From assembly GCA_047651235.1 (NCBI GenBank), contig CP178758.1, positions 3,600,001-3,632,000 of the forward strand: DNA of 32,000 nucleotides, read 5' to 3'. The position numbers and the translations under genes were made by a program. Below, piece by piece: positions 3,661-28,136 of the stretch (positions within the stretch are counted from its first letter, which is position 1; each line of letters begins with the position of its first letter). A model generated the notes under the pieces. That model did not search any database, was not told the DNA's origin, and worked only from the letters and a program-made list of their open reading frames with translations. The DNA comes from Candidatus Electrothrix yaqonensis (GTDB lineage: Bacteria > Desulfobacterota > Desulfobulbia > Desulfobulbales > Desulfobulbaceae).

Positions 3661-5868
3661 ATGCCTGCCAAGGAACCTTTCGCCTCTTCCGAGGCGATGA
3701 TTTATTTCAACACCCTGATTGCCACAACCCATGAGTATCTGCACGAGGTTGATCTGGCTCCGCTGAAAAAAGCCTATACCTTTGCGGAAGAGCGGCACAG
3801 GGAAGCGCATCATTCTTCAGGCAGGCCGTATATTGAGCACCTGCTGGATGTGGCCAATACCCTTGCCTCTATGCGGCTCGACCTTGATACGATTACCGCT
3901 GCCCTGCTCCACGGTATGCTCAAAGAGGAAGCAGCCACCCCTGATGAACTGGAAAAACAGTTCGGGCCTGATGTGGCCAATATCGTCAACGGGACCACCA
4001 GGATCACCAATGTCCATTATGACTCAAAAATGGCCTATCAGGCGGAGAATATCCGCAAGCTGTTCCTTGCTATGGGGTCGGACATCCGGGTGCTGCTGGT
4101 CAAGCTGGCGGACAGACTGCACGACATGCTCAGCCTGCGGCAGGCAGAGAGGGAACGACAGCGGCATCTGGCGCGAGAGACTATGGACCTCTATGCGCCG
4201 CTGGCCAGCCGTCTGGGCATCGACTGGATGAAACGGGAGCTGGAGGATCTGTCCTTTCAGTATCTTTTTCCGGCAGAATACAAGGAGCTGATGGCCCATC
4301 TGGTCAGCACTCTGGGCGAGCGGGAACAATACGTCGATGAGGTGATTGGCATTCTGCGCAGAAAACTGCGGAGGAATAATGTGTTTCCCATCCGGGTCAT
4401 CGGGCGGCCCAAGCATCTCTATTCCATCTATAAGAAACTGGTGGTCCAGAACATCCCGGTCGAGCAGGTGTACGACAAGGTGGCCTTCCGCATTATCGTG
4501 CATACGATCAAGGAATGCTACGAGGCCCTGGGCACCATCCACAGCAGCTGGATACCCGTTCCAGGCCGGATCAAAGATTTTATTTCTGCGCCCAAATCCA
4601 ATAATTATCAGTCGCTGCACACCACGGTGGCCGGTCCGGGCGGCCATTTCATTGAAATCCAGATCCGCACCGAGGAAATGGATAAGGTGGCCCAGGAAGG
4701 CGTTGCTGCCCATTGGGCCTATAAAGAAGGCCAGAAGATCAATTCCAAGGATGCCCGTCTGTTCAGGGAGTTGAAACAGCTGGTTCAGGCCCTGCAGGAG
4801 GTGGAAGACCCCGGCGAATTTCTTGATACAGTGCGGGGCGAGCTGTTTGATCCGGATGTCTATGCCCTCACTCCCACGGGTGAGGTACGGGAGCTGCCTC
4901 GTGGGTCCACGCCCATTGATTTCGCCTATGCCATTCACACGGCTGTCGGGGACCGATGCACGGGCGCCAGAGTCAACGGTCGGCTGGTGCAGCTGAAATA
5001 CGAACTGCAGAACGGCGACATTGTCGAGATTATCACTTCCAGAAATCAGCATCCGAAACGGGCCTGGCTGCAGCTGGTCAAAACCAGCCGGGCCAGAGCA
5101 AAGATCAGGCAGTGGCTGCGTAAGGAAGAAAAAGAAAAGGCACTGCTGACCGGACGTGAGATATGTGAGCGTGAGCTGAAACAGCGCGATACCAGCCTGA
5201 AAAAACTGCTCAAAAGCGGTCATATCCGGCTGCTCCTGGAAAAACTGCGCTGCAACTCTCTGGATGATCTGCTGGCCAAAGTCGGCACCGGAACCATCAC
5301 GATACAGCAGCTGGAACGGGCCCTCCTGCCGGAAGAAATGCTGCAGGAAGAAAAAGAGCAGCGGCAGCAGGAGGAGCTGCTGGAACGGGTGGCCGAGGCT
5401 GAAAGCAGGGCCGCTCTGACCGCGACCGTAAAAGGAGCTGTTGAAGTCGATGGTGTTGATGATATGCTGATTAAGATCAGTCAGTGCTGCAGACCGGTGC
5501 CGGGGGACGAAATTATCGGTTTTATCACCACCGGCAGTGGCGTCTCCGTGCATAAGGCCAAATGTCCCAATCTGCTGGCCACCGATCCGGTCCGATGGCT
5601 TGAAGTCAAATGGACCGGGGCAGCCGCCCAGAATACCCACCGCGCGGAGCTGTTTCTGCGGGCCGAGGACAGAAAGAATTTGCTGGTCGATATCAGCTCG
5701 TGTATCTCCAGTGATGACGCAAATATTGTTGAATTCAACTCCCGTACCACTCCGGACAATATTGCCGAATTCAACGTGGTCCTGGAAATTGCCGATCTGG
5801 ACCATCTGCAGATTCTGCAGACCCATCTGCGGCAGATTCCGGAAATGATCGAGGTACGCAGGCGGTAA
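3661..5868 (+). CDS. relA: RelA/SpoT homologue (long RSH, (p)ppGpp synthetase) whose hydrolase-domain motifs look degenerate
   Basis: The synthetase core reads RPKHLYSIYKKLV...YDKVAFRIIV...PGRIKDFISAPKSNNYQSLHTTV...EIQIRTEEMDKVAQEGVAAHWAYKE. A TGS region (TPTGEVRELPRGSTPIDFAYAIHTAVG) and a C-terminal ACT-like region follow. I chose the ATG at 3661 (MPAKEP...) over the track start at 3601, which overlaps the end of proS. Confidence 0.9.
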   Translation: MPAKEPFASSEAMIYFNTLIATTHEYLHEVDLAPLKKAYTFAEERHREAHHSSGRPYIEHLLDVANTLASMRLDLDTITAALLHGMLKEEAATPDELEKQFGPDVANIVNGTTRITNVHYDSKMAYQAENIRKLFLAMGSDIRVLLVKLADRLHDMLSLRQAERERQRHLARETMDLYAPLASRLGIDWMKRELEDLSFQYLFPAEYKELMAHLVSTLGEREQYVDEVIGILRRKLRRNNVFPIRVIGRPKHLYSIYKKLVVQNIPVEQVYDKVAFRIIVHTIKECYEALGTIHSSWIPVPGRIKDFISAPKSNNYQSLHTTVAGPGGHFIEIQIRTEEMDKVAQEGVAAHWAYKEGQKINSKDARLFRELKQLVQALQEVEDPGEFLDTVRGELFDPDVYALTPTGEVRELPRGSTPIDFAYAIHTAVGDRCTGARVNGRLVQLKYELQNGDIVEIITSRNQHPKRAWLQLVKTSRARAKIRQWLRKEEKEKALLTGREICERELKQRDTSLKKLLKSGHIRLLLEKLRCNSLDDLLAKVGTGTITIQQLERALLPEEMLQEEKEQRQQEELLERVAEAESRAALTATVKGAVEVDGVDDMLIKISQCCRPVPGDEIIGFITTGSGVSVHKAKCPNLLATDPVRWLEVKWTGAAAQNTHRAELFLRAEDRKNLLVDISSCISSDDANIVEFNSRTTPDNIAEFNVVLEIADLDHLQILQTHLRQIPEMIEVRRR

Positions 5869-12068: not shown

Positions 12069-13094
12069 TCAGTCACATGTAAACCGGATTGTGGTCTTCA
12101 TGGCCCAGCTGCCTTTCACGGCAATCTGGTCGCCCTTGGCCCAGGCGGTTTCCTGACCCAGACTGTCGTGCAGCACGGAAGCATGTGCGGCCATTTCGGC
12201 ATCCAGATTTACAGACATGCCGGACTCACACAGCATACCTTCAAGGTCACCGAACTCATCCAGCGGTATCTTGATCCTGTTGGTGACATCATAAACATCT
12301 TCGGAAATGTCCGGGAAGTTTCCTATTTTGGGATTACCCTTCTTGTTTGCAGGCATCACGGGATTTTCCTGATTCTCTACCCAAAGATGCGTTTCCTGAA
12401 GATACCAGCCGTCCTCGGTATCATAGGTGACAGACAGTGTGTCAACCACGCCGTCATTGTCCAGATCCTCCAGATCGACACTGACCGAACCGACATCTGT
12501 ATGCTGACCTGCAATGAGCTCCGCAGACTTGTTTTCTTCTTCCGGTCCGTCGGCGGCAACCTGGAAACCGTCCTTGACGATCTCAACCTGAAGGGTAGGT
12601 TCATCGGCAACATCAGGACCGGGGCGGCAGGGACCGGGAACCTCTGTCACATTATAAAGCCGTGCAGCCTTGAAGCCCATCTCGCATGTCCAACCGTCGC
12701 CTGCGCCTTCGGGAACATTATCGAATTCCACGGTGTATGTCGTTATATTCTCCTCGCCTACCTCCTGCCCGGAATCCCATTTTACATAGACAGTATCTGC
12801 ATAGTCTGTTCCCTTCATACTGCCGTCTTCTCCGATTACGACAGGTTGGTCCGAAGTGGCGACAGCACCTTCAGGAAGCTCAAGATTCAGATGGCTCAGA
12901 GCAGGATCATCATTGATTCTGATCGTGTAGTCACAGAGAACTGTGGTCCCGTATACGCACTGGGCATCCAGAACTTCTGCGGACACTTCAGTGAAGTCGC
13001 CGGCCTGGGCGGTAAAGGGAACTGCAAAAAGAACTGCTGCTGCGGAGATGAAACTTCTGCGGAATACTTTTGATGTGGTTTTTGTGGATTTCAT
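12069..13094 (-). CDS. Hypothetical acidic secreted protein with a Tat-like signal peptide
   Basis: I chose the start at 13094 (GGAGG 6-7 nt upstream) rather than the track start at 13211. The N-terminus MKSTKTTSKVFRRSFISAAAVLFAVPFTAQA|GDF contains RRSFIS, which resembles the twin-arginine motif. The mature part is Asp/Glu-rich and I recognise no domain. Confidence 0.65.
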   Translation of the reverse strand: MKSTKTTSKVFRRSFISAAAVLFAVPFTAQAGDFTEVSAEVLDAQCVYGTTVLCDYTIRINDDPALSHLNLELPEGAVATSDQPVVIGEDGSMKGTDYADTVYVKWDSGQEVGEENITTYTVEFDNVPEGAGDGWTCEMGFKAARLYNVTEVPGPCRPGPDVADEPTLQVEIVKDGFQVAADGPEEENKSAELIAGQHTDVGSVSVDLEDLDNDGVVDTLSVTYDTEDGWYLQETHLWVENQENPVMPANKKGNPKIGNFPDISEDVYDVTNRIKIPLDEFGDLEGMLCESGMSVNLDAEMAAHASVLHDSLGQETAWAKGDQIAVKGSWAMKTTIRFTCD

Positions 13095-13549
13095 AACATA
13101 CCTCCTGGTAGAAAAAGGGTGATGAGAAAGAAAGCAGGCAACCCGGCTGTCTCCTCTATTGGAGACCCGTAGCTTTCCGGCACCGCCTCGCGGCGGTTGT
13201 GGCTTTATCAACTTTCCGGCTCTGCTTTTTCCGGAAAGTATATTATGTCAGAGAACCTGCATTTAAAAAACTGTCTAACAAATCCTTATGGTTCTTTATA
13301 GCTCAAACGCTGCCTGGTGTCAAACTTTTTTTGCAAAAAAAAAACAAAATGTTAGAGTGGTATTTCTTATACTTCGACCAGATATACGACCAATTTTTTA
13401 TCATCGCTCCGTCTCTTTCTGCGGCAGAGAAAAACAGTCCCGCCTTCTCTGCATGGAGCCGAAATCTCTTCATTTTATACTGGCTCTGAAGCGAAGGACT
13501 GTTTCCTTGTCTCCGGAAGGCCGCAGAGGGTTACCCATGCCGCCCTCAT

Positions 13550-19368: not shown

Positions 19369-19451
19369 AACGATGTGAAAGTCATCAGTTCAGGATAGGT
19401 TCGGAATCAATAAGCCGACGACTATACCATGCGTTTTTTTTCTTTGCAAAC

Positions 19452-19466
19452 AGGAGTTACGCGGTT
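19452..19466. repeat. Solo copy (14 of 15 nt) of the terminal-repeat motif of the MITE-like element at 29863..29980
   Basis: aggagttacgcGgtt at 19452-19466 compares with aggagttacgcAgtt at 29865-29879. Both lie upstream of minus-strand gene starts (hemL and dapB). Confidence 0.4.
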
Positions 19467-19602
19467 AGTAAAAATCAGGCAATATGGCAGACATAAAAAA
19501 GAAGCTCAATTACTTCCCCCTGCATTATCGACATCGGGACGGAAGGTAGGGATGTAAGGAGGATGTGCTCGCGGAGGGGAACAAGAAGGGATGATCAGCA
19601 GC

Positions 19603-19631
19603 TTGCACTCTTTCCGGCTATCGTGTATTTT
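19603..19631 (+). promoter_or_regulatory. Candidate sigma70-type promoter for the low-GC cassette
   Basis: TTGCAC (19603-19608), a 17-nt spacer, then TATTTT (19626-19631), about 150 nt upstream of the ATG at 19779. This is a consensus match only. Confidence 0.25.
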
Positions 19632-19778
19632 ATATATTTTCCGATGTTAAAAAGAAATATCGTATCTTCCCATGAAATCGGGATTTGGCAAACAAGGTAG
19701 TATTATACGCGAGTCTATCTCATGATTTTTTGCATATACACCACCATTCAGCCCCCTTTGTCAAAAAGGTGAAGTGCT

Positions 19779-20528
19779 ATGCTTCCAGATGATCTGATTG
19801 TAGGATTTATTATATACGCATTGACGTTTCGGTTGGCTATCATTGCAGCGGGTATTGTGAGTATTGTCTTTGGATACAAGCTGTTTGCGCTCGGCGTGAT
19901 GGGCGGAGAGAAAACCCGTATTAACGCTCAGGCAGGGCAGATTAAACTGACACTTGCCAATGCCGGGCCCGGCTTGGGTTTTGCACTGTTCGGTGTACTC
20001 ATTATCGCGGTTATGCTTTTTCAAGGTAATCCAGAGATCGTCCTGAAGGATGTTCAGCTCGTTATAAAGGATTTACAGCAAGGCGGTACTCCGTCCGAGG
20101 TGCATATCGGAAGCGCAGCATTTAAGGGGGGGAACGATAATAAGATAAGTCAAGCGGTGCAGCGTTTCAATCAGGCGTTGAATGAAGGGAAGCAGTTGCA
20201 ACATGCTGGAGATATCGAAGCGGCCATAACAGTTTATAACAAGGTGCTGTCCGACTCAGAGGCCCCCTTTATACTCAATGAATTAGCTTGGCTCTATCGG
20301 GAACAGCAGCAACTTGACGAGGCTCTGGTGTTGGCACATGCAGCAACGACAGTTGATCAGAAAGACTCCAATAGCTTCGACACGCTAGCACTGATTTTGC
20401 TGGATCGGAAGGAGTTTGAAGCTGCGGAACACGCTGCACAGACTGCCTTGAAGCTTGATCCTGCTAACCAGGATTATAAGGAAACCCTGAATAAAGTACA
20501 AGCTGCTAAGAATAGTACAACGCTATGA
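19779..20528 (+). CDS. Membrane-anchored TPR-repeat protein (cassette gene 1)
   Basis: The N-terminal hydrophobic segments are IVGFIIYALTFRLAIIAAGIVSIVFGYKLFAL and GPGLGFALFGVLIIAVMLF. About three TPR-like repeats follow (GDIEAAITVYNKVL..., LNELAWLYREQQQLDEALVLAHAA..., FDTLALILLDRKEFEAAEHAAQTALKLDP). The stop overlaps the next start (ATGA at 20525-20528). Confidence 0.7.
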   Translation: MLPDDLIVGFIIYALTFRLAIIAAGIVSIVFGYKLFALGVMGGEKTRINAQAGQIKLTLANAGPGLGFALFGVLIIAVMLFQGNPEIVLKDVQLVIKDLQQGGTPSEVHIGSAAFKGGNDNKISQAVQRFNQALNEGKQLQHAGDIEAAITVYNKVLSDSEAPFILNELAWLYREQQQLDEALVLAHAATTVDQKDSNSFDTLALILLDRKEFEAAEHAAQTALKLDPANQDYKETLNKVQAAKNSTTL

Positions 20529-21712
20529 TTAAAATAGTGAATCGCTGCGTTATTATAGCACTATTGCTCCTAATTGAGACGAATGCCTGGGGCGTTAATC
20601 TTTCTGGTTATTTTGGTAACAGCTACGCTGTTGTGGTCGGTATTCATGAATATCAGGATAGGAACACTTGGCCGGATGTGACGTATGCCATGGAAGACGC
20701 AAATGATATGGTCGCATTTCTTTTGAGGCAGGGCTTCAGAAAAAATAATGTAAAGTCGTTCATTAATGACCGAGCGACAAGAGAAAGTATTATATCCTAT
20801 TTGGCAGACGATCTAGCACGGACATTGAAAAATAATGACAGAGTCGTCTTTTATTTCTCGGGGCATGGAGAAACTGAGCAGATTGGCTTAAATGACTTCG
20901 GCTATATCATACCCTATGATGGCAAGAAAGGACGTCCTTCAACTTGGATTTCTATGGAGAAGCTTCAAGAGCTTGCAGCTAAACTTGGCAATGCCCGCCA
21001 TCAGCTGTTTATTTTGGACTCCTGTTTTGGTGGTCTGATTGAGCCGAAGGGATCGGGTATTTCATCAGAGATGCCTTTTTATCTTGACGATTTGACAAAA
21101 CGTCGAGTACGCCTGTACATGACTGCCGGTGGTGCCAATGAGAAGGCCCCTATGCGTAGTAGCTTTTCTAAGAATAGCCATTATACAGCTAATCTCCTCA
21201 GAGGGTTGGATGGCCTTGCGGATAAGAATTATGACGGGATTGTAACTACGAGTGAACTTGAAGGGTATCTTCTGACAGCAGCTAGTATAAGAGGAGTAAT
21301 TATGCCGAGATGGGGAACTCTTGACGGTCACGAGAATGGGGAGTTTGTTTTTAGCTCTCCGAAAACTGCACGGAACATAGTTCGCAATTCAAGTCCGGTG
21401 TCCGGCCCCACCAAAGGGAATGTCAAGAATAGCTATGAGGTGGAGAGGTTACGAGCAGAGGTAGAGCGATTGGAGAAATTACGAGCAGCAGAAAGATCGA
21501 AACCACAACCACAATTATATACAAAATCTTTATCAGTAAGAAGCACATTAACTAAAGAGGAGCAAAATCAGATCGATTATGAATGGCAGCATGATATTCA
21601 AGGTGCTGCCAGCTCTTATACTGTTGAACAATTTCTCGAACGATACCCTGTAGGAGGTCATGTTCCAGCTGCACGGCAGAAACTGAACGAACTACGTGCG
21701 CGTGGTCAATAA
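20525..21712 (+). CDS. Exported caspase-like cysteine protease (peptidase C14 fold) with a coiled-coil/helical C-terminal region (cassette gene 2)
   Basis: A signal-peptide-like N-terminus is present (MIKIVNRCVIIALLLLIETNA|WG). The C14 hallmark motifs are YAVVVGIHEY, the catalytic His in VVFYFSGHGE and the catalytic Cys in LFILDSCFGG. The C-terminus has RLRAEVERLEKLRAAE and YTVEQFLERYPVGGHVPAARQKLNEL. Confidence 0.75.
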   Translation: MIKIVNRCVIIALLLLIETNAWGVNLSGYFGNSYAVVVGIHEYQDRNTWPDVTYAMEDANDMVAFLLRQGFRKNNVKSFINDRATRESIISYLADDLARTLKNNDRVVFYFSGHGETEQIGLNDFGYIIPYDGKKGRPSTWISMEKLQELAAKLGNARHQLFILDSCFGGLIEPKGSGISSEMPFYLDDLTKRRVRLYMTAGGANEKAPMRSSFSKNSHYTANLLRGLDGLADKNYDGIVTTSELEGYLLTAASIRGVIMPRWGTLDGHENGEFVFSSPKTARNIVRNSSPVSGPTKGNVKNSYEVERLRAEVERLEKLRAAERSKPQPQLYTKSLSVRSTLTKEEQNQIDYEWQHDIQGAASSYTVEQFLERYPVGGHVPAARQKLNELRARGQ

Positions 21713-21755
21713 GTGTGTTTTTACGAGATAGGCATATATGCCTTTGGAGCTTGAT

Positions 21756-22409
21756 ATGAATATAATAAAGATTGGAATTAGTGTAGCTGCATGCGTTGCG
21801 CTCAGTGGATGTTCAGACCTTTTACTACTCAGGCCGGAGGTTAAAGGTTGCTACCCGGTGGATAGTCTTAGCATAGAGGAACGGGTTAGTCTCCAAGTCG
21901 GGAATGGCAATCCGATACTTCTGGCTGGTGATAAGGAATTTGTATGTGCCTGCTATCATCCTGGTTCCCTTGTCGCAGCCGATGAAGGGGATCATCTGGA
22001 CAGAGCTGACGAAGATGATAACTTGGACAGAGCCGACGAAAATGATAACTTGGACAGAGCTGACGAAGGAGATTATTTGGTCAAAGCGGATGAAGGCGAT
22101 CGTTTGGATAGAGCTAGCGAAGGAGATCGTCTGGACAAAGCCGGTGAAGGGGACCGTTTGGACAGAGCCAGTGAAGGAGATCGTCTTGACAAAGCTGGTG
22201 AGGGCGATCGTTTGGACAAGGCTGGTGAAGGAGATCAGCTGGATAAAGCCGATGAAGCAGATTGGCTTTCAAAAGACTCTACCGAACTCTCTTGCCGTAT
22301 TGTATCAGGATGTCCTGGTTTTCAACTGATTGGTTATGAACCGAAACAGATCACAGTTCGTACCGAGGAAGGAAGAAAGTCTTTTTCAACGAACTGTATC
22401 ACTTGGTAA
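21756..22409 (+). CDS. Lipoprotein with 11 tandem acidic nonapeptide repeats flanked by Cys-containing modules (cassette gene 3)
   Basis: The start at 21756 has GGAG 6 nt upstream; the track start at 21738 is less likely. The lipobox is in MNIIKIGISVAACVALSG|CS. The repeats run ADEGDHLDR ADEDDNLDR ADENDNLDR ADEGDYLVK ADEGDRLDR ASEGDRLDK AGEGDRLDR ASEGDRLDK AGEGDRLDK AGEGDQLDK ADEADWLSK. Confidence 0.7.
   Translation: MNIIKIGISVAACVALSGCSDLLLLRPEVKGCYPVDSLSIEERVSLQVGNGNPILLAGDKEFVCACYHPGSLVAADEGDHLDRADEDDNLDRADENDNLDRADEGDYLVKADEGDRLDRASEGDRLDKAGEGDRLDRASEGDRLDKAGEGDRLDKAGEGDQLDKADEADWLSKDSTELSCRIVSGCPGFQLIGYEPKQITVRTEEGRKSFSTNCITW
21978..22274. repeat. 27-bp tandem repeat, 11 copies, in frame
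   Basis: Units of gcY gRt gaa ggN gat cNt ctg gac aRa type run from 21978 to 22274 (11 x 27 = 297 nt). The central copies are the most similar to one another. Confidence 0.9.
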
Positions 22410-22434
22410 AATTTATTGAAAAACGAGGATTGAT

Positions 22435-23217
22435 ATGGAAAAGTTATTGACAGCCTGCTTTCTTTCATTACCCCTTTTGATGGCTTGTGGGGCCATGCAT
22501 CCTTTAGAGAAAGGGGGGGATACGAAACGAGCGTTGAATACCGTCGAGTTGCAGTATCCCAACGTTACATTTACATTTCCGTCCACCAGAAAGACGTACC
22601 GGTCCGGTGAATCTTTTCCCCCGCCGAAAACTATTGATTGTTCCAACCTCACCCTGAAATCAGACTCATTCAAAGATGCTATTGAGGCAGGAGCACTCAT
22701 AGTGAGGATTAAGACCCCACGACAAGTAAAGCAGATTGTTAAGGATAAAAAGGGCAAAGAAATTGTTGAGCGCGTTAAGATAAAACCCGTTTACGGCGGA
22801 GTACTGGCATTGTGTAAAGTTTCTCCTAATGCGACTGGGCCGGATTCCCGAAGCTACCGGATTCGCGATCTTGATGACCGCCTTATTAAGGGCCAGAATG
22901 GCTTTATTTCTGTTATAGGGGCAAACCTGTCACAGGGTAATCAGCTACCCTCACTGCAAGATTTGGGAAAAGTACTCAATATCGACACAGGGCTTTCCTC
23001 TAAATCCATCAATATAGGCAGGACTAATTATTCTTGGATGCTCTGGCTGACAGACCGAACATCCACCTTTACCGATTATGAAGGTGAGATGATAATGCGT
23101 AAGCGCAAGGAGAAAGCAGCTAAAGCTAGGGCAGCAGCTAAGGATAGAGCGGATCAAGCTAGAGCTGAAGCTAAAGCAAGAGAAGAAGCAAGAAAAGCCA
23201 AGTCTGCTTCTAAATAA
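22435..23217 (+). CDS. Lipoprotein-like hypothetical protein with a Lys/Ala/Arg/Glu-rich helical C-terminal tail (cassette gene 4)
   Basis: MEKLLTACFLSLPLLMA|CGAM carries a lipobox-like LMAC, in which Met at -2 is atypical. A globular part of about 200 aa has no domain I recognise. The tail is RKRKEKAAKARAAAKDRADQARAEAKAREEARKAKSASK. Confidence 0.6.
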   Translation: MEKLLTACFLSLPLLMACGAMHPLEKGGDTKRALNTVELQYPNVTFTFPSTRKTYRSGESFPPPKTIDCSNLTLKSDSFKDAIEAGALIVRIKTPRQVKQIVKDKKGKEIVERVKIKPVYGGVLALCKVSPNATGPDSRSYRIRDLDDRLIKGQNGFISVIGANLSQGNQLPSLQDLGKVLNIDTGLSSKSINIGRTNYSWMLWLTDRTSTFTDYEGEMIMRKRKEKAAKARAAAKDRADQARAEAKAREEARKAKSASK

Positions 23218-23390
23218 GCTCCCAGCTGGACGGAAGCCAGCCTCGCACCGATAAATCACATACAATGCGTAGCCCGGATGGAATACAATAAAATCCGGGC
23301 GTTCATCCACTGCGCCATCAATTTCCGCATTTCACTGTGCTGCATATGATCTTCCTCCTGCAGCCCTCCCTCCTTTCGCAGCCATCTGTC

Positions 23391-23693
23391 TCACATCGAC
23401 GCAAACATTCGTGTGCCCGCTCCCCAAGCCTTTTCCTTGACAAAATCAGCAGCTGTCTCTACAAAGGACAGGTTGAATCGCAGTTGTGACAGGCCAGACC
23501 GGTTGTCCGTGAGGTTGAAAAAATGCGGATGGATAAAAACGACCTGACCTCCCGGCATTACGACTATTACAGAGGACAGTTCCCTAACCGGGTGTTCAGA
23601 GTGTTTGCTGTCGGAACTCTGGACAAAATTCCACTGATGGTTATTATATTTCCAAAACAAGCGCTGTGTCTCGGTATGCTGCTGCACCGACAA
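23391..23693 (-). CDS. Doubtful short ORF; possibly a degenerate C-terminal remnant of a 2OG/Fe(II)-oxygenase-like (PhyH-like) gene
   Basis: It starts with TTG and has no SD. The segment VVMPGGQVVFIHPHFFNLTDNRSGLSQLRF loosely resembles the xGDxxxFHxxxxHxSxxNxSxxxR region of PhyH-type proteins, but the spacing is imperfect. It sits at the junction between the low-GC cassette and the bat operon. Confidence 0.2.
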   Translation of the reverse strand: MSVQQHTETQRLFWKYNNHQWNFVQSSDSKHSEHPVRELSSVIVVMPGGQVVFIHPHFFNLTDNRSGLSQLRFNLSFVETAADFVKEKAWGAGTRMFASM

Positions 23694-23737: not shown

Positions 23738-25741
23738 ATGCCGACCTTTGCCCAACCGCTTTGGCTGCTGACAGGCTTGGTTGCCTGCTTCGCAGCCGTG
23801 CTGTTCATCAGTTTTAATATTATACGCAGAAAAAAGGAACTGCAGACATTCGCTGCAGTCAATCTGCTGCCCGGCCTGACCACCAATGTTTCCACTTCCC
23901 GGCGCAGGCTGAAGAATATTCTATTTATTCTGGGCTTGGCCTGCCTGTTCCTCGCCTTGGCCCGACCTCAGTACGGCAACCGCTGGATCGAGGTGCGGCG
24001 CAAGGGGATAGACATCCTGATCGGGGTGGATGTGTCCAAATCTATGTTGGTACCGGATATCAGCCCGAACCGATTGGAACGGGCCAAACTGGCCATCCGG
24101 GACTTTGTTGGCAAGCTGGAGGGCGACCGGGTAGGGCTGCTCCCCTTTGCCGGAACCGCCTTTCTCATGTGCCCGCTGACCACGGACTATGATGCCTTTA
24201 CCGCCTCGCTGGATGCCATAGATGTCAACACCATTCCCAAAGGCGGCACGGATATCGGCACGGCCATCCGGGAAGGAGGCGAGGCCCTGGCCAACGAAGC
24301 CAATCATAAAATTCTTGTCCTGGTTACTGACGGTGAGGATCTGAGCGAGGATGCCCTCAAAGCGGCAGAGAAGGCAAAAGCTGAGAAGATGACCATCTAC
24401 ACTATCGGTGTAGGCACACCGGAAGGCGAGCTGGTGCCTCTGCCGGGCGGCCAGCCGGGAAGTTTTGTCAAGGATGCGCAGGGCAATTTTGTCACCTCCA
24501 AACTGGACGAGCACACCTTGACCACTATTGCCGAGGCCACAGGCGGGCTGTACGTGCCTCTGGGCAGCATGGGCCAAGGCTTTGAAACAGTGTATCAGCG
24601 CAAGCTGGCCCTTTTACCCAAGGAGGAACACGGGCAGCGTAAACAGAAGATTCCCATTGAACGCTTCCCGTGGCCGCTGGGTGCTGCTCTGCTTCTGCTT
24701 GGTGCGGATTTCCTCCTCACCGGTCGGAAGAGCAGCCGATCTCTGCGTCTACCCTTTGTCAAGACTGCGGGCAGGCGGAAAAAACAGCAGGCAACGGCAG
24801 CGGTTCTGCTCATCGCCCTGTTCTTCGGAGCAACATCAGGACGGGCTTCCCAGGGTGAGGAGCTGTTTCAGGCCGGTGATTATAGCGGGGCTGAAAAGTA
24901 TTATCACAAGGCTCTGGAAAAGGACAAGGATGATCCGGCCCTGCATTTCAATCTGGGCGGCACACTGTACCGGCAGAAAAAATACGAACAGGCTGCCGCA
25001 GAGTTTAATCAGGCCCTGGCAACAGAAAATCTGAACTTACAGGCCAAAAGCTATTATAATCGGGGCAACAGCCAATATTTTCTTGGTGCAGCTCAGGAGG
25101 CGGCTGATGCGGAACAGGCCCTGAAGCAGTGGAGCGGGGCAAAGAAATCCTTTGAAGCCGCACTGCAGCTGCAGCCCGAAGACAAGGCGGCTGCCCATAA
25201 TCTGGAGATGATCAGCAAAAAGCTGGAGCAGCTGAAAGAAAAAATGCGCAACTCCGGCAAGCAGTGCAATAATCCGCAGAGCGGCAAGGACGGCGACCAG
25301 CAGAAGGACGGACAGGACAAAAAGAAAGAGGAGCAGCAACCGCAGGATCAGAACAGCGCCGACGGAAAAGAACAACAGGAGGAACAGCAGGAGAGCTCTT
25401 CGCCGCAGGAGCAGCCAGCCGGTCAGCAGGAGGATGCCGAAGAGCAACCTGAGCAGCAGGCTGCACCAGAACCGGCTGAAGAGGCTGAACCGGAAAAGAA
25501 GGAAGAAACACCGGCTGTCGAAGATATTCAGCAGGCTGCGGCGGAGGAGAACGAACAGAGCGGGCAGCAGGAGGAGAAAAAACAGCAGATGAGCGAGGAG
25601 GATATGCAACGCAGGATGATGGGCAGAATGACCGAACAAGAGGCGAAGAATTTGCTCGATAGCCTGAAGGGGGAGCAGGGTGAGCTGAATTTTATTCCCC
25701 AAGGAGCACCAGACGACGAACCGGTGAGAAAAGATTGGTGA
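23738..25741 (+). CDS. VWA-domain membrane protein fused to a TPR module with a Gln/Glu-rich tail (BatB-like plus BatC-like fusion)
   Basis: The N-terminal TM (FAQPLWLLTGLVACFAAVLF) and the VWA MIDAS context (DILIGVDVSKSM...LLPFAGTAFLMCPLTTD...GGTDIGTAI...ILVLVTDGED) are BatA/B-like. After a TM segment (WPLGAALLLLGADFLL) and a second signal-anchor-like stretch (ATAAVLLIALFFGATSG) there are TPR repeats (GEELFQAGDYSGAEKYYHKALEKD...). The protein ends with a long Q/E/K-rich tail. Confidence 0.8.
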   Translation: MPTFAQPLWLLTGLVACFAAVLFISFNIIRRKKELQTFAAVNLLPGLTTNVSTSRRRLKNILFILGLACLFLALARPQYGNRWIEVRRKGIDILIGVDVSKSMLVPDISPNRLERAKLAIRDFVGKLEGDRVGLLPFAGTAFLMCPLTTDYDAFTASLDAIDVNTIPKGGTDIGTAIREGGEALANEANHKILVLVTDGEDLSEDALKAAEKAKAEKMTIYTIGVGTPEGELVPLPGGQPGSFVKDAQGNFVTSKLDEHTLTTIAEATGGLYVPLGSMGQGFETVYQRKLALLPKEEHGQRKQKIPIERFPWPLGAALLLLGADFLLTGRKSSRSLRLPFVKTAGRRKKQQATAAVLLIALFFGATSGRASQGEELFQAGDYSGAEKYYHKALEKDKDDPALHFNLGGTLYRQKKYEQAAAEFNQALATENLNLQAKSYYNRGNSQYFLGAAQEAADAEQALKQWSGAKKSFEAALQLQPEDKAAAHNLEMISKKLEQLKEKMRNSGKQCNNPQSGKDGDQQKDGQDKKKEEQQPQDQNSADGKEQQEEQQESSSPQEQPAGQQEDAEEQPEQQAAPEPAEEAEPEKKEETPAVEDIQQAAAEENEQSGQQEEKKQQMSEEDMQRRMMGRMTEQEAKNLLDSLKGEQGELNFIPQGAPDDEPVRKDW

Positions 25742-26214
25742 TGACGATGTTCAACAGACAATTCTATAAAAAGAAGAAACGGCATATCCTGGTCTGGTTG
25801 CCGGTTTTCCTCTGCTGCGTGCTGGCCGCTCCAGCTATGGCGGTGGAGATACAGGTCTCGGTAGAACTGAACCCGACCAGTTTTACGGTGGGAGCGACAG
25901 CAGAACTCACGGTGACCGTGAACGGCACCAGCTCGGCCACCCTGGAAATACCGGAGGTGGACGGCCTGGATTTCCAGCAGAACGGTCTGTATCAGCAGAC
26001 CACGGTTACCGGCGGGAAAGTTATTGCTTCTGTTACCTACAATTTGATGGTCCAGGCTGACAAGCCCGGAGATTATACCATCGGGCCGGTCAGGGTCAAG
26101 GCGGACGGTAAGGTCTATACCACCAAATCTGTCAAGTGCACGGTTCTGGCCGCCCGAAATTCCGCTTCCCAAGATAGAGATACCGAGGAGAAGGCGGACA
26201 GGATCTGGTTATGA
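25735..26214 (+). CDS. Stand-alone BatD N-terminal-domain paralogue (secreted)
   Basis: It has a signal peptide (HILVWLPVFLCCVLAAPAMA). The following domain is closely similar to residues about 33-140 of the next gene: 32/43 and 26/31 identities in two blocks counted by hand. Its start overlaps the previous stop and its stop overlaps the next start (ATGA at 26211). Confidence 0.65.
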   Translation: MVMTMFNRQFYKKKKRHILVWLPVFLCCVLAAPAMAVEIQVSVELNPTSFTVGATAELTVTVNGTSSATLEIPEVDGLDFQQNGLYQQTTVTGGKVIASVTYNLMVQADKPGDYTIGPVRVKADGKVYTTKSVKCTVLAARNSASQDRDTEEKADRIWL

Positions 26215-28136
26215 AGGCATGGGGAAATCAATGCCGGTCGGTTGCTGTCCGGACATGGCTGCTGGCTCTCCTCTGCTGTGCGTTTGCTGCTCCAAATGCG
26301 GGTGCGGCAGCAGATATTCAGATCTCGGCGGAGCTGAACCCGACCGAATTTACGGTGGGTGAGACAGCCGGACTCACAGTAACTGTGAACGGCACCATCT
26401 CGGCTGAGCCGGAAAGACCGGAAGTGGACGGACTGCGTTTTTACTACCGTGGTCCGAATCAGAGTCGGCAGATCTCGTGGGTGAACGGCAAGGCAAAGGT
26501 ATCTTCTTCTGTTACGTTCAACTTTCTGGTTCGAGCTGACAAACCCGGAGATTATACCATCGGGCCGGTCAAGGTCAAGGCGGACGGCAAGGCGTATACC
26601 ACTCAACCTCTCAAATGCACGGTTCTGCCTGCACAGAACGCAAACTTAAACGCAACCGGACAACCGCAGCCGCAGACCGGGAAGACTCCACAGGGTGCTG
26701 CCCGACCGACCCGCCCCGATGTTGCCGGGCAGGTCGGCTTCATGCGGATCATGCCGGAAGCAGAACGCATCTACTCCGGCCAGCTGGTTCCCTTTATCCT
26801 GAAGGCCTATTTCCGATCGGGAATACGGATTACCCTCAAATCGGCACCCCGTTTTTCCGGGGATGATTTTCTCCTTCATTCGCTTGACGAAAAACCGCAG
26901 CAGCGGCAGGAACGGTTTAACGGCAGGCCGTATACTACCCTGACCTGGCAGGGATCTCTGTCCGCTGTCAAAGAGGGCACGGTTCCGCTGATCGTGGAAA
27001 TGGACGCGGAAGCTCTGATTCGGCAGCAATCCCGCCGTCGGACCGACCCGTTCGGCTCCTCCATGTTGAACGATCCGTTTTTTGACAGCTTTTTCGGCCA
27101 GTATTCCACCCATGAGGTAAAAATCACCAGCCCGGAAAAGACCATCACCGTGCTGGACCTGCCTGCTGCAGACCGTCCGCCTGATTTTCACGGAGCCATC
27201 GGCAACTTCAGCCTGTCTGTGGCAGCTTCGCCGCTGGACGGCAAAGTCGGTGATCCGATTACCCTGAAGATGCAGATTACGGGCAGCGGCAATTTTGATC
27301 TGGTCCAGGCCCCGGCACTCACCGGGAGCGAGGGCTGGAAGACCTATCCGGCTGCGGACAGTTTTGCTGAGCAGGGCAGCGGCAAAGGCAAAAAGACCTT
27401 TGAACAGGCGGTCATCCCGATCAAACAGGGGGTGACCGCTGTTCCGTCGCTCCGTTTTTCTTACTTTGATCCGAGTACAGAGGACTATGTTACCCTGACC
27501 AGTGATCCGATCCCGCTGCAGCTCCAGGATGCAGTGGAACCAATGAAACCGGCGGCTCAGCCTCCGGTCAGCACGGTGCAGTCAGCTCAGCCGACACAGA
27601 CGGAAGATGCGGGGAACAACACAGCTCCTGAGAATTCTGCAGCAAAGCCTGCTCCGCATCCGGCCCCCCTGAAAAATGAACTGGGAAAGCTGGTCCCGGC
27701 AATTCAACCTTTGTATCGCAAGCTGTGGTTTCAGGTGATGATCGGCTCTGCTGCGCTCTGTCTCCTGGCTGCTCTGCTGCTCTTTCTGCACAGGAAAAAA
27801 CTGGAAAATGATCCCGCAATCCTGCTCCGTAAGCAGGTGAAACAGCAACTGGCGCAGCATTATCAGGCAATGCAGCAGGCGATTGCTGCTCAGGATCAGG
27901 AGCGTTTTCAGCAGCATTGCCGGACGGCGGTCCAGCAGCGGACCGGGGAGGTCTGGGGGCTTGCGCCGGAAGCCATTACCTTGGCGGATCTGGAGCAACG
28001 GCTGCCGGAGGATGCGCCTTTGCGGAATATTTTTTCCCGCTTGGAACAGAGCGGTTATGCAGGTGAGCACTTAGCGCAGGCCGAGCTGGAAGAAACTCTG
28101 CAGACAACCCGAAACGAACTGGAGAAGCTGGTATGA
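26211..28136 (+). CDS. batD: BatD-like 'oxygen tolerance' protein
   Basis: The 641-aa ORF has a signal peptide (WLLALLCCAFAAPNAGA) and beta-rich repeated modules (FTVGETAGLTVTVNG, FSLSVAASPLDGKVGDPITLKMQITGSGNF). A C-terminal TM (LWFQVMIGSAALCLLAALLLFL) and a cytoplasmic helical tail follow. It sits between the VWA and TPR-SH3 genes, as in bat operons. Confidence 0.75.
   Translation: MKAWGNQCRSVAVRTWLLALLCCAFAAPNAGAAADIQISAELNPTEFTVGETAGLTVTVNGTISAEPERPEVDGLRFYYRGPNQSRQISWVNGKAKVSSSVTFNFLVRADKPGDYTIGPVKVKADGKAYTTQPLKCTVLPAQNANLNATGQPQPQTGKTPQGAARPTRPDVAGQVGFMRIMPEAERIYSGQLVPFILKAYFRSGIRITLKSAPRFSGDDFLLHSLDEKPQQRQERFNGRPYTTLTWQGSLSAVKEGTVPLIVEMDAEALIRQQSRRRTDPFGSSMLNDPFFDSFFGQYSTHEVKITSPEKTITVLDLPAADRPPDFHGAIGNFSLSVAASPLDGKVGDPITLKMQITGSGNFDLVQAPALTGSEGWKTYPAADSFAEQGSGKGKKTFEQAVIPIKQGVTAVPSLRFSYFDPSTEDYVTLTSDPIPLQLQDAVEPMKPAAQPPVSTVQSAQPTQTEDAGNNTAPENSAAKPAPHPAPLKNELGKLVPAIQPLYRKLWFQVMIGSAALCLLAALLLFLHRKKLENDPAILLRKQVKQQLAQHYQAMQQAIAAQDQERFQQHCRTAVQQRTGEVWGLAPEAITLADLEQRLPEDAPLRNIFSRLEQSGYAGEHLAQAELEETLQTTRNELEKLV

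Follow-up and report, generated by a model that had tools for sequence, protein, structure and literature searches.

A stretch of 32,000 nucleotides from Candidatus Electrothrix yaqonensis (GenBank assembly GCA_047651235.1, contig CP178758.1, positions 3,600,001 to 3,632,000 of the forward strand), hereafter called the window, carried four genes, g1 to g4, that appear to form a conserved and previously undescribed extracytoplasmic protease cassette of cable bacteria. The genes encode a predicted inner-membrane tetratricopeptide repeat (TPR) protein (g1), a predicted exported protease with a C14 caspase-type domain (g2) and two predicted lipoproteins (g3 and g4). Comparison with related loci suggested that the cassette is a composite of two units, one consisting of g1 and the caspase domain of g2, and the other of the C-terminal tail of g2, about 55 residues long, together with g3 and g4. 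The tail, g3 and g4 appear to be the conserved core, in which the caspase domain can be exchanged for a trypsin. We give a probability of about 0.5 to the reading that the products make up an extracytoplasmic protease complex, in which a periplasmic protease is tethered to the g3–g4 lipoprotein pair, and in which this pair acts as sensor or substrate.

The order g1–caspase–g3–g4 was found in seven independent loci with different flanking genes in each (L0xx and P0xxx denote the loci and the proteins that were compared with the window cassette): the window itself, E. scaldis (L002), Electronema aureum (L006/L010), E. laxa (L011), two metagenome contigs (L017 and L018), and L029. The last of these was a prospective check, in that the tail-bearing caspase P0014 shared no contig with the listed g4 matches, and g1, g3, and g4 were found beside it. 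Homologs of g1 lay ahead of the caspase gene in L002, L004, L010, L011, L014, L017, L018, and L029. At least seven further caspase and g4 matches came from contigs of equal length. A preliminary description of the window, made from its sequence and open reading frames (ORFs), had made its reading depend on whether the four families co-occur elsewhere, and the neighborhood search established that they do, in the seven loci and in further variants. When a g4 profile was scanned against 185,579 species genomes, only seven loci were obtained, all of them from cable bacteria or other Desulfobulbaceae except that of Ca. Venteria ishoeyi, a filamentous bacterium of the Beggiatoaceae that oxidises sulfide. 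Filamentous gliding bacteria, Beggiatoaceae included, have been reported to exchange genes (PMC6390638), which agrees with the occurrence of g3 and g4 in two phyla; the presence of the g3–g4 core in both Desulfobulbaceae and Beggiatoaceae may be a further case of such cross-phylum sharing.

The division into two units was apparent from loci in which one of them was exchanged. In Ca. Venteria ishoeyi (L005) and in a JGI contig (L008), the gene just ahead of g3 and g4 encoded not a caspase but a signal-peptide protease with Trypsin_2 and PEGA domains, the last ~55 residues of which aligned with the C-terminus of g2 (…EEQ.QALYEWQ.D…S.S…VE.FL.RYP.GSHVP….KL.ELRA.G.). The converse was seen in E. gigas (L004, 7254-10709), where g1 was kept and the caspase was 85% identical over residues 1–298 of g2, while the tail was replaced by a different beta-rich region and g3 and g4 were replaced as well. 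The downstream genes in this locus encoded an unrelated 164-residue lipoprotein and a 266-residue beta-barrel-like protein (sub-threshold DUF6850, E 0.008). In the distant loci L025 and L027, a tail-bearing caspase was followed by g3 and g4, the latter represented in L027 only by a distant relative. The tail was carried by 21 of 120 caspase homologs, which were the closest relatives of g2, and the tail-less homologs ended in other domains, such as FGE-sulfatase, Sel1, LamG, or Lcl_C. It is because of this protease swap, the joint replacement, the distant lineages, and the distribution of the tail that we regard the cassette as a composite. The preliminary description had seen it as built around the caspase-like protease; a C14 protease is indeed present, but its catalytic domain is swappable and the conserved core lies in the tail, g3, and g4. 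Ahead of the trypsin-type protease of this gammaproteobacterial version, two conserved unrelated genes stood in place of g1 (4144-6123 in L005/L012 and 3883-6092 in L008), encoding a secreted protein of ~242 residues and a protein of ~400 residues with a transmembrane segment at about residues 67–92, both of no known family. The tail was not always terminal, since in P0006 (599 residues) and P0093 (355 residues) it was followed by an extra region of ~200 residues with no recorded family.

The association of the tail with g4 was also seen within single polypeptides. A g4 domain that lacked a lipobox was joined to the C-terminal end of a signal-peptide caspase in E. sp. AR1 (P0021) and in L014/L020, and in P0021 the fused domain was preceded by an internal copy of the hairpin motif found in the tail of g2. 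A 512-residue protein of Electronema sp. PJ (L015, 7029-8567) consisted, in this order, of an N-terminal TIR domain (TIR_2, 6e-12), a single transmembrane helix at residues 242–266 with a basic stretch ahead of it, the hairpin motif, and finally the g4 domain. The same arrangement was split into two ORFs in E. laxa (L013, 6599-7402 and 7659-8570), with an AT-rich gap of about 250 nt between them. The TIR–transmembrane–hairpin–g4 protein stood alone, with no g1, g2, or g3. In the fusions, the hairpin and g4 are neighbors within a single polypeptide, and the g4 domain is linked to a second type of effector across the membrane.

The preliminary description had assigned to g2 a C14 fold with an intact His/Cys dyad behind a signal-peptide-like N-terminus, and both parts of this assignment held. 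The sequence was 100% identical to that of an annotated caspase family protein from Candidatus Electrothrix sp. YB6, a cable bacterium in the Desulfobulbaceae. The protein matched Peptidase_C14 (PF00656) with 52.9 bits (cut-off 21.4), and six residues, His114, Gly115, Asp165, Cys167, Gly170, and Asp58, were invariant in 36 homologs. The sole hydrophobic segment spanned residues 1–24, as in the homologs, trypsin-type proteases included; throughout, hydropathy and regular expressions served to assign signal peptides and lipoboxes. In a profile search of the PDB, the closest solved relatives were GSU0716 (3bij, 6e-11), metacaspase-4, Yca1, and Trypanosoma brucei MCA2 (TbMCA2). Thus, g2 shared with these metacaspase-like or orthocaspase C14 proteins the PF00656 fold, the His/Cys dyad, and the "DSC" motif together with Asp58; it differed from them in its predicted export signal, in its BamD-like C-terminal hairpin, and in its fixed operon with two lipoproteins and a transmembrane TPR protein. 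In view of the TbMCA2 and Yca1 structures, we take Asp58, and Asp165 of the "DSC" motif, to be the acidic S1 residues that accept Arg or Lys at P1. Because these two residues typical of metacaspases were kept, g2 is predicted to cut after Arg or Lys. Another conserved stretch, residues 233–245 (21221-21259; motif DKNYDGIVTTSEL), contained Asp233, Asp237, Gly238, Thr241, Glu244, and Leu245, conserved in at least 90% of the 36 homologs. The stretch looked EF-hand-like and is possibly a cation site; it is presumably not a canonical EF-hand, since under PROSITE PS00018 position 4 fails in g2 and position 3 in the homologs. The tail was predicted to form a helical hairpin. Its similarity to BamD/YfiO profiles was borderline (3qky, E 0.004; 5efr, E 0.0009; both over only 28 residues), and the hit to CpoB/YbgF was weaker (E 0.33); in the caspase of L011, the YfiO family of Pfam was hit with an E of 0.03. 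The likeness to a BamD/YfiO TPR unit was borderline in score but consistent across searches.

The gene g1 had been described as encoding a membrane TPR protein, in agreement with its Pfam matches (TPR_2, 7e-12, 44.9 bits, cut-off 27; TPR_1, 6e-10, 38.9 bits; TPR_8, 30.3 bits) and with two hydrophobic segments at about residues 4–43 and 57–89, separated by a loop rich in Lys and Arg. This N-terminal two-segment module was highly conserved among the homologs and had no match in Pfam, NCBIfam, PADLOC, or the PDB. Neither the N-terminal 122 residues nor the whole protein gave an EACC1 or other non-TPR match in Pfam at E<=1.

For g4, the lipoprotein-like character and the basic helical tail noted at the outset were supported by a conserved lipobox and by an AlphaFold2 model. 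The lipobox read LMAC, with LSAC, LTGC, or LTAC at the same position in homologs; across g3 and g4 homologs together, the variants LSSC, LGAC, LSAC, LTGC, and LTAC occurred at the equivalent position. The model had a mean predicted local distance difference test (pLDDT) score of 85.5, with core values above 95, and residues 210–259 formed a single helix. In an alignment of 35 homologs, the motifs PPKTIDCS, YGGVLALC, GPDSRSY, and SWMLWLTDR were found, and the tails were variable and charged or Pro-rich, each starting with a conserved basic cluster. The protein had no sequence match in Pfam, NCBIfam, or PADLOC, its profile had none in the PDB, and Foldseek of the model against the PDB and BFVD gave no match at E<=0.001, the best being an fHbp chimera with a TM-score of 0.17. 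A profile search of 1.84 billion representatives retrieved 163 distant relatives, mostly lipoproteins of 160–300 residues, some of which carried SH3_3; ten relatives were scanned, and no Pfam family other than SH3_3 was found in them.

The g3 product had been called a lipoprotein with 11 acidic nonapeptides, which was confirmed by its LSGC lipobox and by Tandem Repeats Finder. The program reported a 27-nt repeat with 10.6 copies at 21977-22262 (75% matches, score 194) and a 54-nt super-period with a score of 275. A direct search for g3 homologs was swamped by repeat words (5 hits), and the homologs were taken from the loci instead. In 13 homologs, the N- and C-terminal halves of the protein were conserved. 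The insert between them had 8–14 repeat units in 76–126 residues and kept its acidic character while its sequence drifted. From the consensus LDRADEGDR, only the hydrophobic residue at position 1 and Glu at position 6 were kept across the homologs. The g3 protein matched nothing in Pfam, the PDB, NCBIfam, or PADLOC, and deletion of the repeats yielded no match in Pfam or the PDB either. The repeats resembled RTX calcium-binding repeats in their nine-residue period, their richness in Gly, Asp, and Glu, and the hydrophobic residue at a fixed position. We rejected this assignment because the consensus differs ([LVI]-x-[G/K]-x-x-E-x-x-x versus GGxGxDxUx); RTX and SMc04171 models scored 8–16 bits on g3 against cut-offs of 625–1000 (RTX, 7.8 bits against 1000). 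In L027, the public gene call at 4550-4960 (136 residues, minus strand) lay on the wrong strand, and the plus strand encoded a g3 homolog with GASEGGKLV repeats and an SCITW end.

The placement of all cassette products outside the cytoplasm or in the membrane, as the preliminary description had predicted, is supported by features read from the sequences, because signal peptides, lipoboxes, and Cys pairs were conserved. The same description had set the cassette against cytoplasmic conflict systems. The export signals agree with this, but the contrast was too strong, because the g4 domain is fused to TIR in L015 and because the logic of the protease swap resembles that of conflict modules.

In the protease complex that we favor, the tail of g2 would dock the secreted protease onto the g3–g4 pair at the outer membrane, as co-occurrence and the fusions suggest, and g4 would be either the element of recognition or sensing or the element that is cleaved. 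The protease may then cleave a partner after Arg or Lys, and candidate sites are the basic cluster just past the g4 domain and the Lys and Arg residues in the g3 repeats. The g1 protein would pair with the caspase domain, with translational coupling through the ATGA overlap of the two genes, and may act in the inner membrane as a regulator or anchor whose TPR part lies on the periplasmic side. The whole would then be a sensing module that filamentous sediment bacteria keep in the periplasm and gate by proteolysis, with a logic like that of conflict or cell-death systems run in the envelope. Docking of a BamD-like protease tail on g3 and g4 is a specific prediction of this scheme. Three protein modules that fall into no known family were delimited by the comparisons, namely the membrane module of g1, g3, and the g4 domain. 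In a more far-reaching version, which we regard as speculative and improbable, the g4 domain would be a new class of extracytoplasmic sensor wired to caspase, trypsin, or TIR in a periplasmic pathway of immunity or programmed cell death in multicellular, filamentous sediment bacteria. Such a pathway could underlie the formation of ghost cells, the isolation of damaged or infected cells, or the controlled breakage of filaments. Cable bacteria form centimeter-long filaments with unexplained inactive ghost cells, and a 2025 study of these cells noted that cable bacteria possess caspase-domain genes in need of functional study (PMC12163305). The cassette offers a concrete, conserved, and tractable candidate for this caspase question; literature searches that paired cable bacteria with caspase or metacaspase brought up no account of it.

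Several observations weigh against this protease complex. The docking step was read from co-occurrence and fusions, and from these only, and the similarity of the tail to BamD was borderline, with E of about 1e-3 across 28 residues. The g3 protein lent no structural support, as its AlphaFold2 model, built from 5 sequences, had a pLDDT of 34 and was uninformative. Lys and Arg were present in the g3 repeats of many lineages, but some lineages have few (4 in 103 residues in L025), and therefore the repeats, judging from their sequences, cannot be the universal site of an Arg/Lys-specific enzyme. In L024, g3 and a g4–SH3 protein were encoded with no adjacent protease; the pair thus has an independent role. 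The topology of g1 was derived from a simple positive-inside count, which was inconsistent in some homologs. A scan for promoters and terminators found no convincing sites bracketing the cassette, and so gave no evidence for a single transcript. Finally, no system in PADLOC matched, and only a generic caspase model was returned.

NlpI–Prc of Escherichia coli and LbcA–CtpA of Pseudomonas aeruginosa combine a periplasmic S41 protease with an outer-membrane lipoprotein adaptor through contacts mediated by TPRs. The cassette resembles them in its predicted periplasmic protease, outer-membrane lipoprotein partners, and TPR contacts, and it may be read as a housekeeping envelope protease with lipoprotein adaptors. 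In that case, g3 and g4 would deliver envelope proteins, possibly cell-wall hydrolases or filament junction or sheath proteins, for turnover, with no sensing or cell death. All parts being extracytoplasmic is in keeping with this, as is the likeness of the g2 tail to BamD/CpoB TPR units, which mediate periplasmic protein contacts. Some distant g4 relatives carry SH3_3, a domain often described as cell-wall binding, and the window flanks (hemL, atp, and bat) are housekeeping genes. However, the narrow and patchy distribution, the variable location, and the atypical composition of the cassette are unlike those of a core envelope function. Moreover, the protease is C14 or S1 rather than S41 and is not a known partner of such adaptors, the TPR protein is a predicted inner-membrane protein rather than a lipoprotein, neither g3 nor g4 is related to NlpI or LbcA, and the TIR fusion of the g4 domain is hard to reconcile with turnover. 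We consider routine turnover rather unlikely.

A dedicated maturation system is less likely still. Here, g3, g4, or both would be a functional surface or periplasmic pair with a structural, adhesive, or cation-binding role, and the protease would act on it a single time, perhaps by trimming off the g4 tail, much as dedicated propeptide-processing proteases do. The occurrence of g3–g4 as the deepest conserved unit, present in L024 with no protease, agrees with such a pair, and the g3 insert keeps its length and acidity despite sequence drift, as a spacer or ion-binding segment would. The g4 tails, variable behind their conserved basic cluster, might likewise be removed. The caspase–g4 and TIR–transmembrane–g4 fusions are unexpected for a structural protein and its maturase, though, and the poor fit of the g3 repeats to the RTX calcium-binding consensus, with family matches far under the cut-offs, and the uninformative g3 model lend nothing to an ion-binding or structural role.

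Two protease systems of cytoplasmic defence share part of the organization of the protease complex proposed here. The EACC1-caspase system, which is enriched in multicellular bacteria and for which proteolytic gating has been proposed, places the gene for a small transmembrane protein 5' of a caspase with a variable C-terminus (Kaur et al. 2020, PMC7159879; Evans et al. 2025 preprint, PMC12642450). The cassette is similar in all these respects, including its multicellular hosts, and caspase_w_EACC1 (NF047832) was the best NCBIfam match of g2, but the score of 67.3 bits lay below the cut-off of 140, g1 consists of two hydrophobic segments and TPRs, and the caspase is predicted to be periplasmic, with lipoproteins as its partners. 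We rejected g1 as an EACC1 protein, as no profile match was obtained for the whole protein or for its N-terminal module alone. In Pepco-protease pairs, a non-enzymatic beta-rich partner with a charged or Pro-rich tail past its folded part accompanies a serine or cysteine protease, and sensor-like domains, FGE among them, are present on the proteases (PMC12642450); FGE was also found in the nearest relatives of g2. Pepco, however, is a cytoplasmic protein of 117 residues and g4 a predicted lipoprotein of 260 residues, with no sequence relationship detected between them; neither g3 nor g4 had any match in Pfam or PADLOC, and whether either library holds a Pepco model was not checked. A swappable cysteine or serine protease with fixed small partners would nevertheless parallel the protease–effector modules of cytoplasmic defence (PMC7159879, PMC12642450), and a protease-gated logic that has until now been reported from cytoplasmic conflict systems may operate in the periplasm as well. 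That the cassette is itself such a cytoplasm-directed system, with g1 or g4 a latent pore-former released by the caspase, is the least likely reading and a very improbable one, since the likenesses just given, among them the small partners with charged C-terminal tails that are activated by cleavage (PMC12642450), and the restriction–modification and toxin–antitoxin genes that neighbor the cassette in other genomes are set against the signal peptide of g2, the lipoboxes of g3 and g4, the failed EACC1 assignment, the difference in size between g4 and Pepco, and the restriction of the PADLOC result to a generic caspase model. The earlier statement that no characterized operon matches the cassette was sustained by searches of Pfam, NCBIfam, PADLOC, the PDB, and the literature.

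The low GC content of the cassette relative to its flanks, from which horizontal acquisition had been proposed, was evident in both overall GC and GC at third codon positions (GC3). The cassette had 45.5% GC against 53.9% in the remainder of the window, and 3.4-kb windows outside it had a mean of 54.1% (standard deviation 2.0, minimum 50.1), which placed the cassette about 4 standard deviations lower. The GC3 of the four genes (0.375–0.484) was under that of all 20 other window ORFs of at least 150 residues (mean 0.617, standard deviation 0.052). The cassette also had a lower GC content than its flanks in 7 of 8 related loci. The values given earlier for single lines of sequence reflected a real dip but were more extreme than the window averages. 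Thus, atypical composition and variable genomic location both fit acquisition from elsewhere, but no tRNA, integrase, or flanking direct repeats were found at the cassette, and searches with g4 matched neither phage nor plasmid sequences. The case for horizontal acquisition is thus plausible and only circumstantial, because it draws on composition and location without the hallmarks of a mobile element. In other genomes, the neighbors of the cassette in variable regions included a type I restriction–modification system, a HEPN/nucleotidyltransferase pair, three tandem PDDEXK_2 (Rpn-like) genes, and an antitoxin gene; the window cassette itself, unlike these, was flanked by housekeeping genes.

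The tight packing of the four genes on one strand had been described correctly, as judged from the ORFs and the sequence (Table 1). The ATGA overlap of g1 and g2 was read directly, and the spacings were 43 nt between g2 and g3, with the g3 start at 21756, and 25 nt between g3 and g4. This start was preceded by GGAG 8 nt upstream and agreed with the NCBI call (P0164); an alternative start lay at 21738. The sequence AAGGTGA was located 6–7 nt ahead of the ATG of g1.

Table 1. Coordinates of the cassette and associated features. Positions are those of the window unless a locus is named.
Feature	Position	Strand	Description
hemL–g1 intergenic region	19369..19778		410 nt between divergent hemL and g1; GC 42%; presumed promoter region
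g1	19779..20528	+	249 aa, predicted inner-membrane; N-terminal hydrophobic module aa 1-89; TPR repeats aa ~130-245
g2	20525..21712	+	
g2 signal peptide	20525..20593	+	aa 1-23, ...NAWG|V; predicted from hydropathy
g2 C14 domain	20609..21358	+	caspase/metacaspase-type, aa ~29-278; PF00656 5e-14
g2 dyad	20864-20866; 21023-21025	+	codons of His114 and Cys167
g2 "EWQ tail"	21545..21709	+	aa ~341-395, predicted helical hairpin of ~55 aa resembling BamD/YbgF-type TPR unit
g3	21756..22409 (alternative start 21738)	+	217 aa, predicted lipoprotein; Cys-rich split domain, six conserved Cys, ends CITW
g3 acidic nonapeptide array	21977..22273	+	27 nt x ~11, 54-nt super-period
g4	22435..23217	+	260 aa, predicted lipoprotein
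g4 beta-rich domain	22519-23079	+	aa ~29-215, invariant Cys C69 and C127
g4 basic helical tail	23080-23214	+	aa 216-260
Variable-region neighbors in other loci	L029 8806-13200; L002 6249-6966; L011 9066-11767; L008 3139-3348		

The cassette was flanked upstream by hemL and atp genes and downstream by Bat-family genes. In the intergenic region between hemL and g1, no convincing sigma-70 match was found on the plus strand, and Rfam gave no match in or beside the cassette, this region included. The bat operon was considered as part of the system and rejected, as the cassette has other flanking genes in each of the remaining genomes. Within it, two adjacent overlapping plus-strand ORFs (25735-26214, about 155–159 residues, and 26211-28136, 641 residues) were both assigned to the BatD family by the public gene calls of the identical contig L001. 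Between g4 and the bat operon, a minus-strand ORF (23391-23693, 100 residues) is annotated publicly as a gene; it had no Pfam match and may be spurious. Farther upstream, a c-di-GMP-I-GGC riboswitch aptamer was detected on the minus strand at 13133-13212 (E 6e-13; 63.4 bits, gathering score 59); it lies at the 5' end of ORF 12069-13211, which is also on the minus strand.

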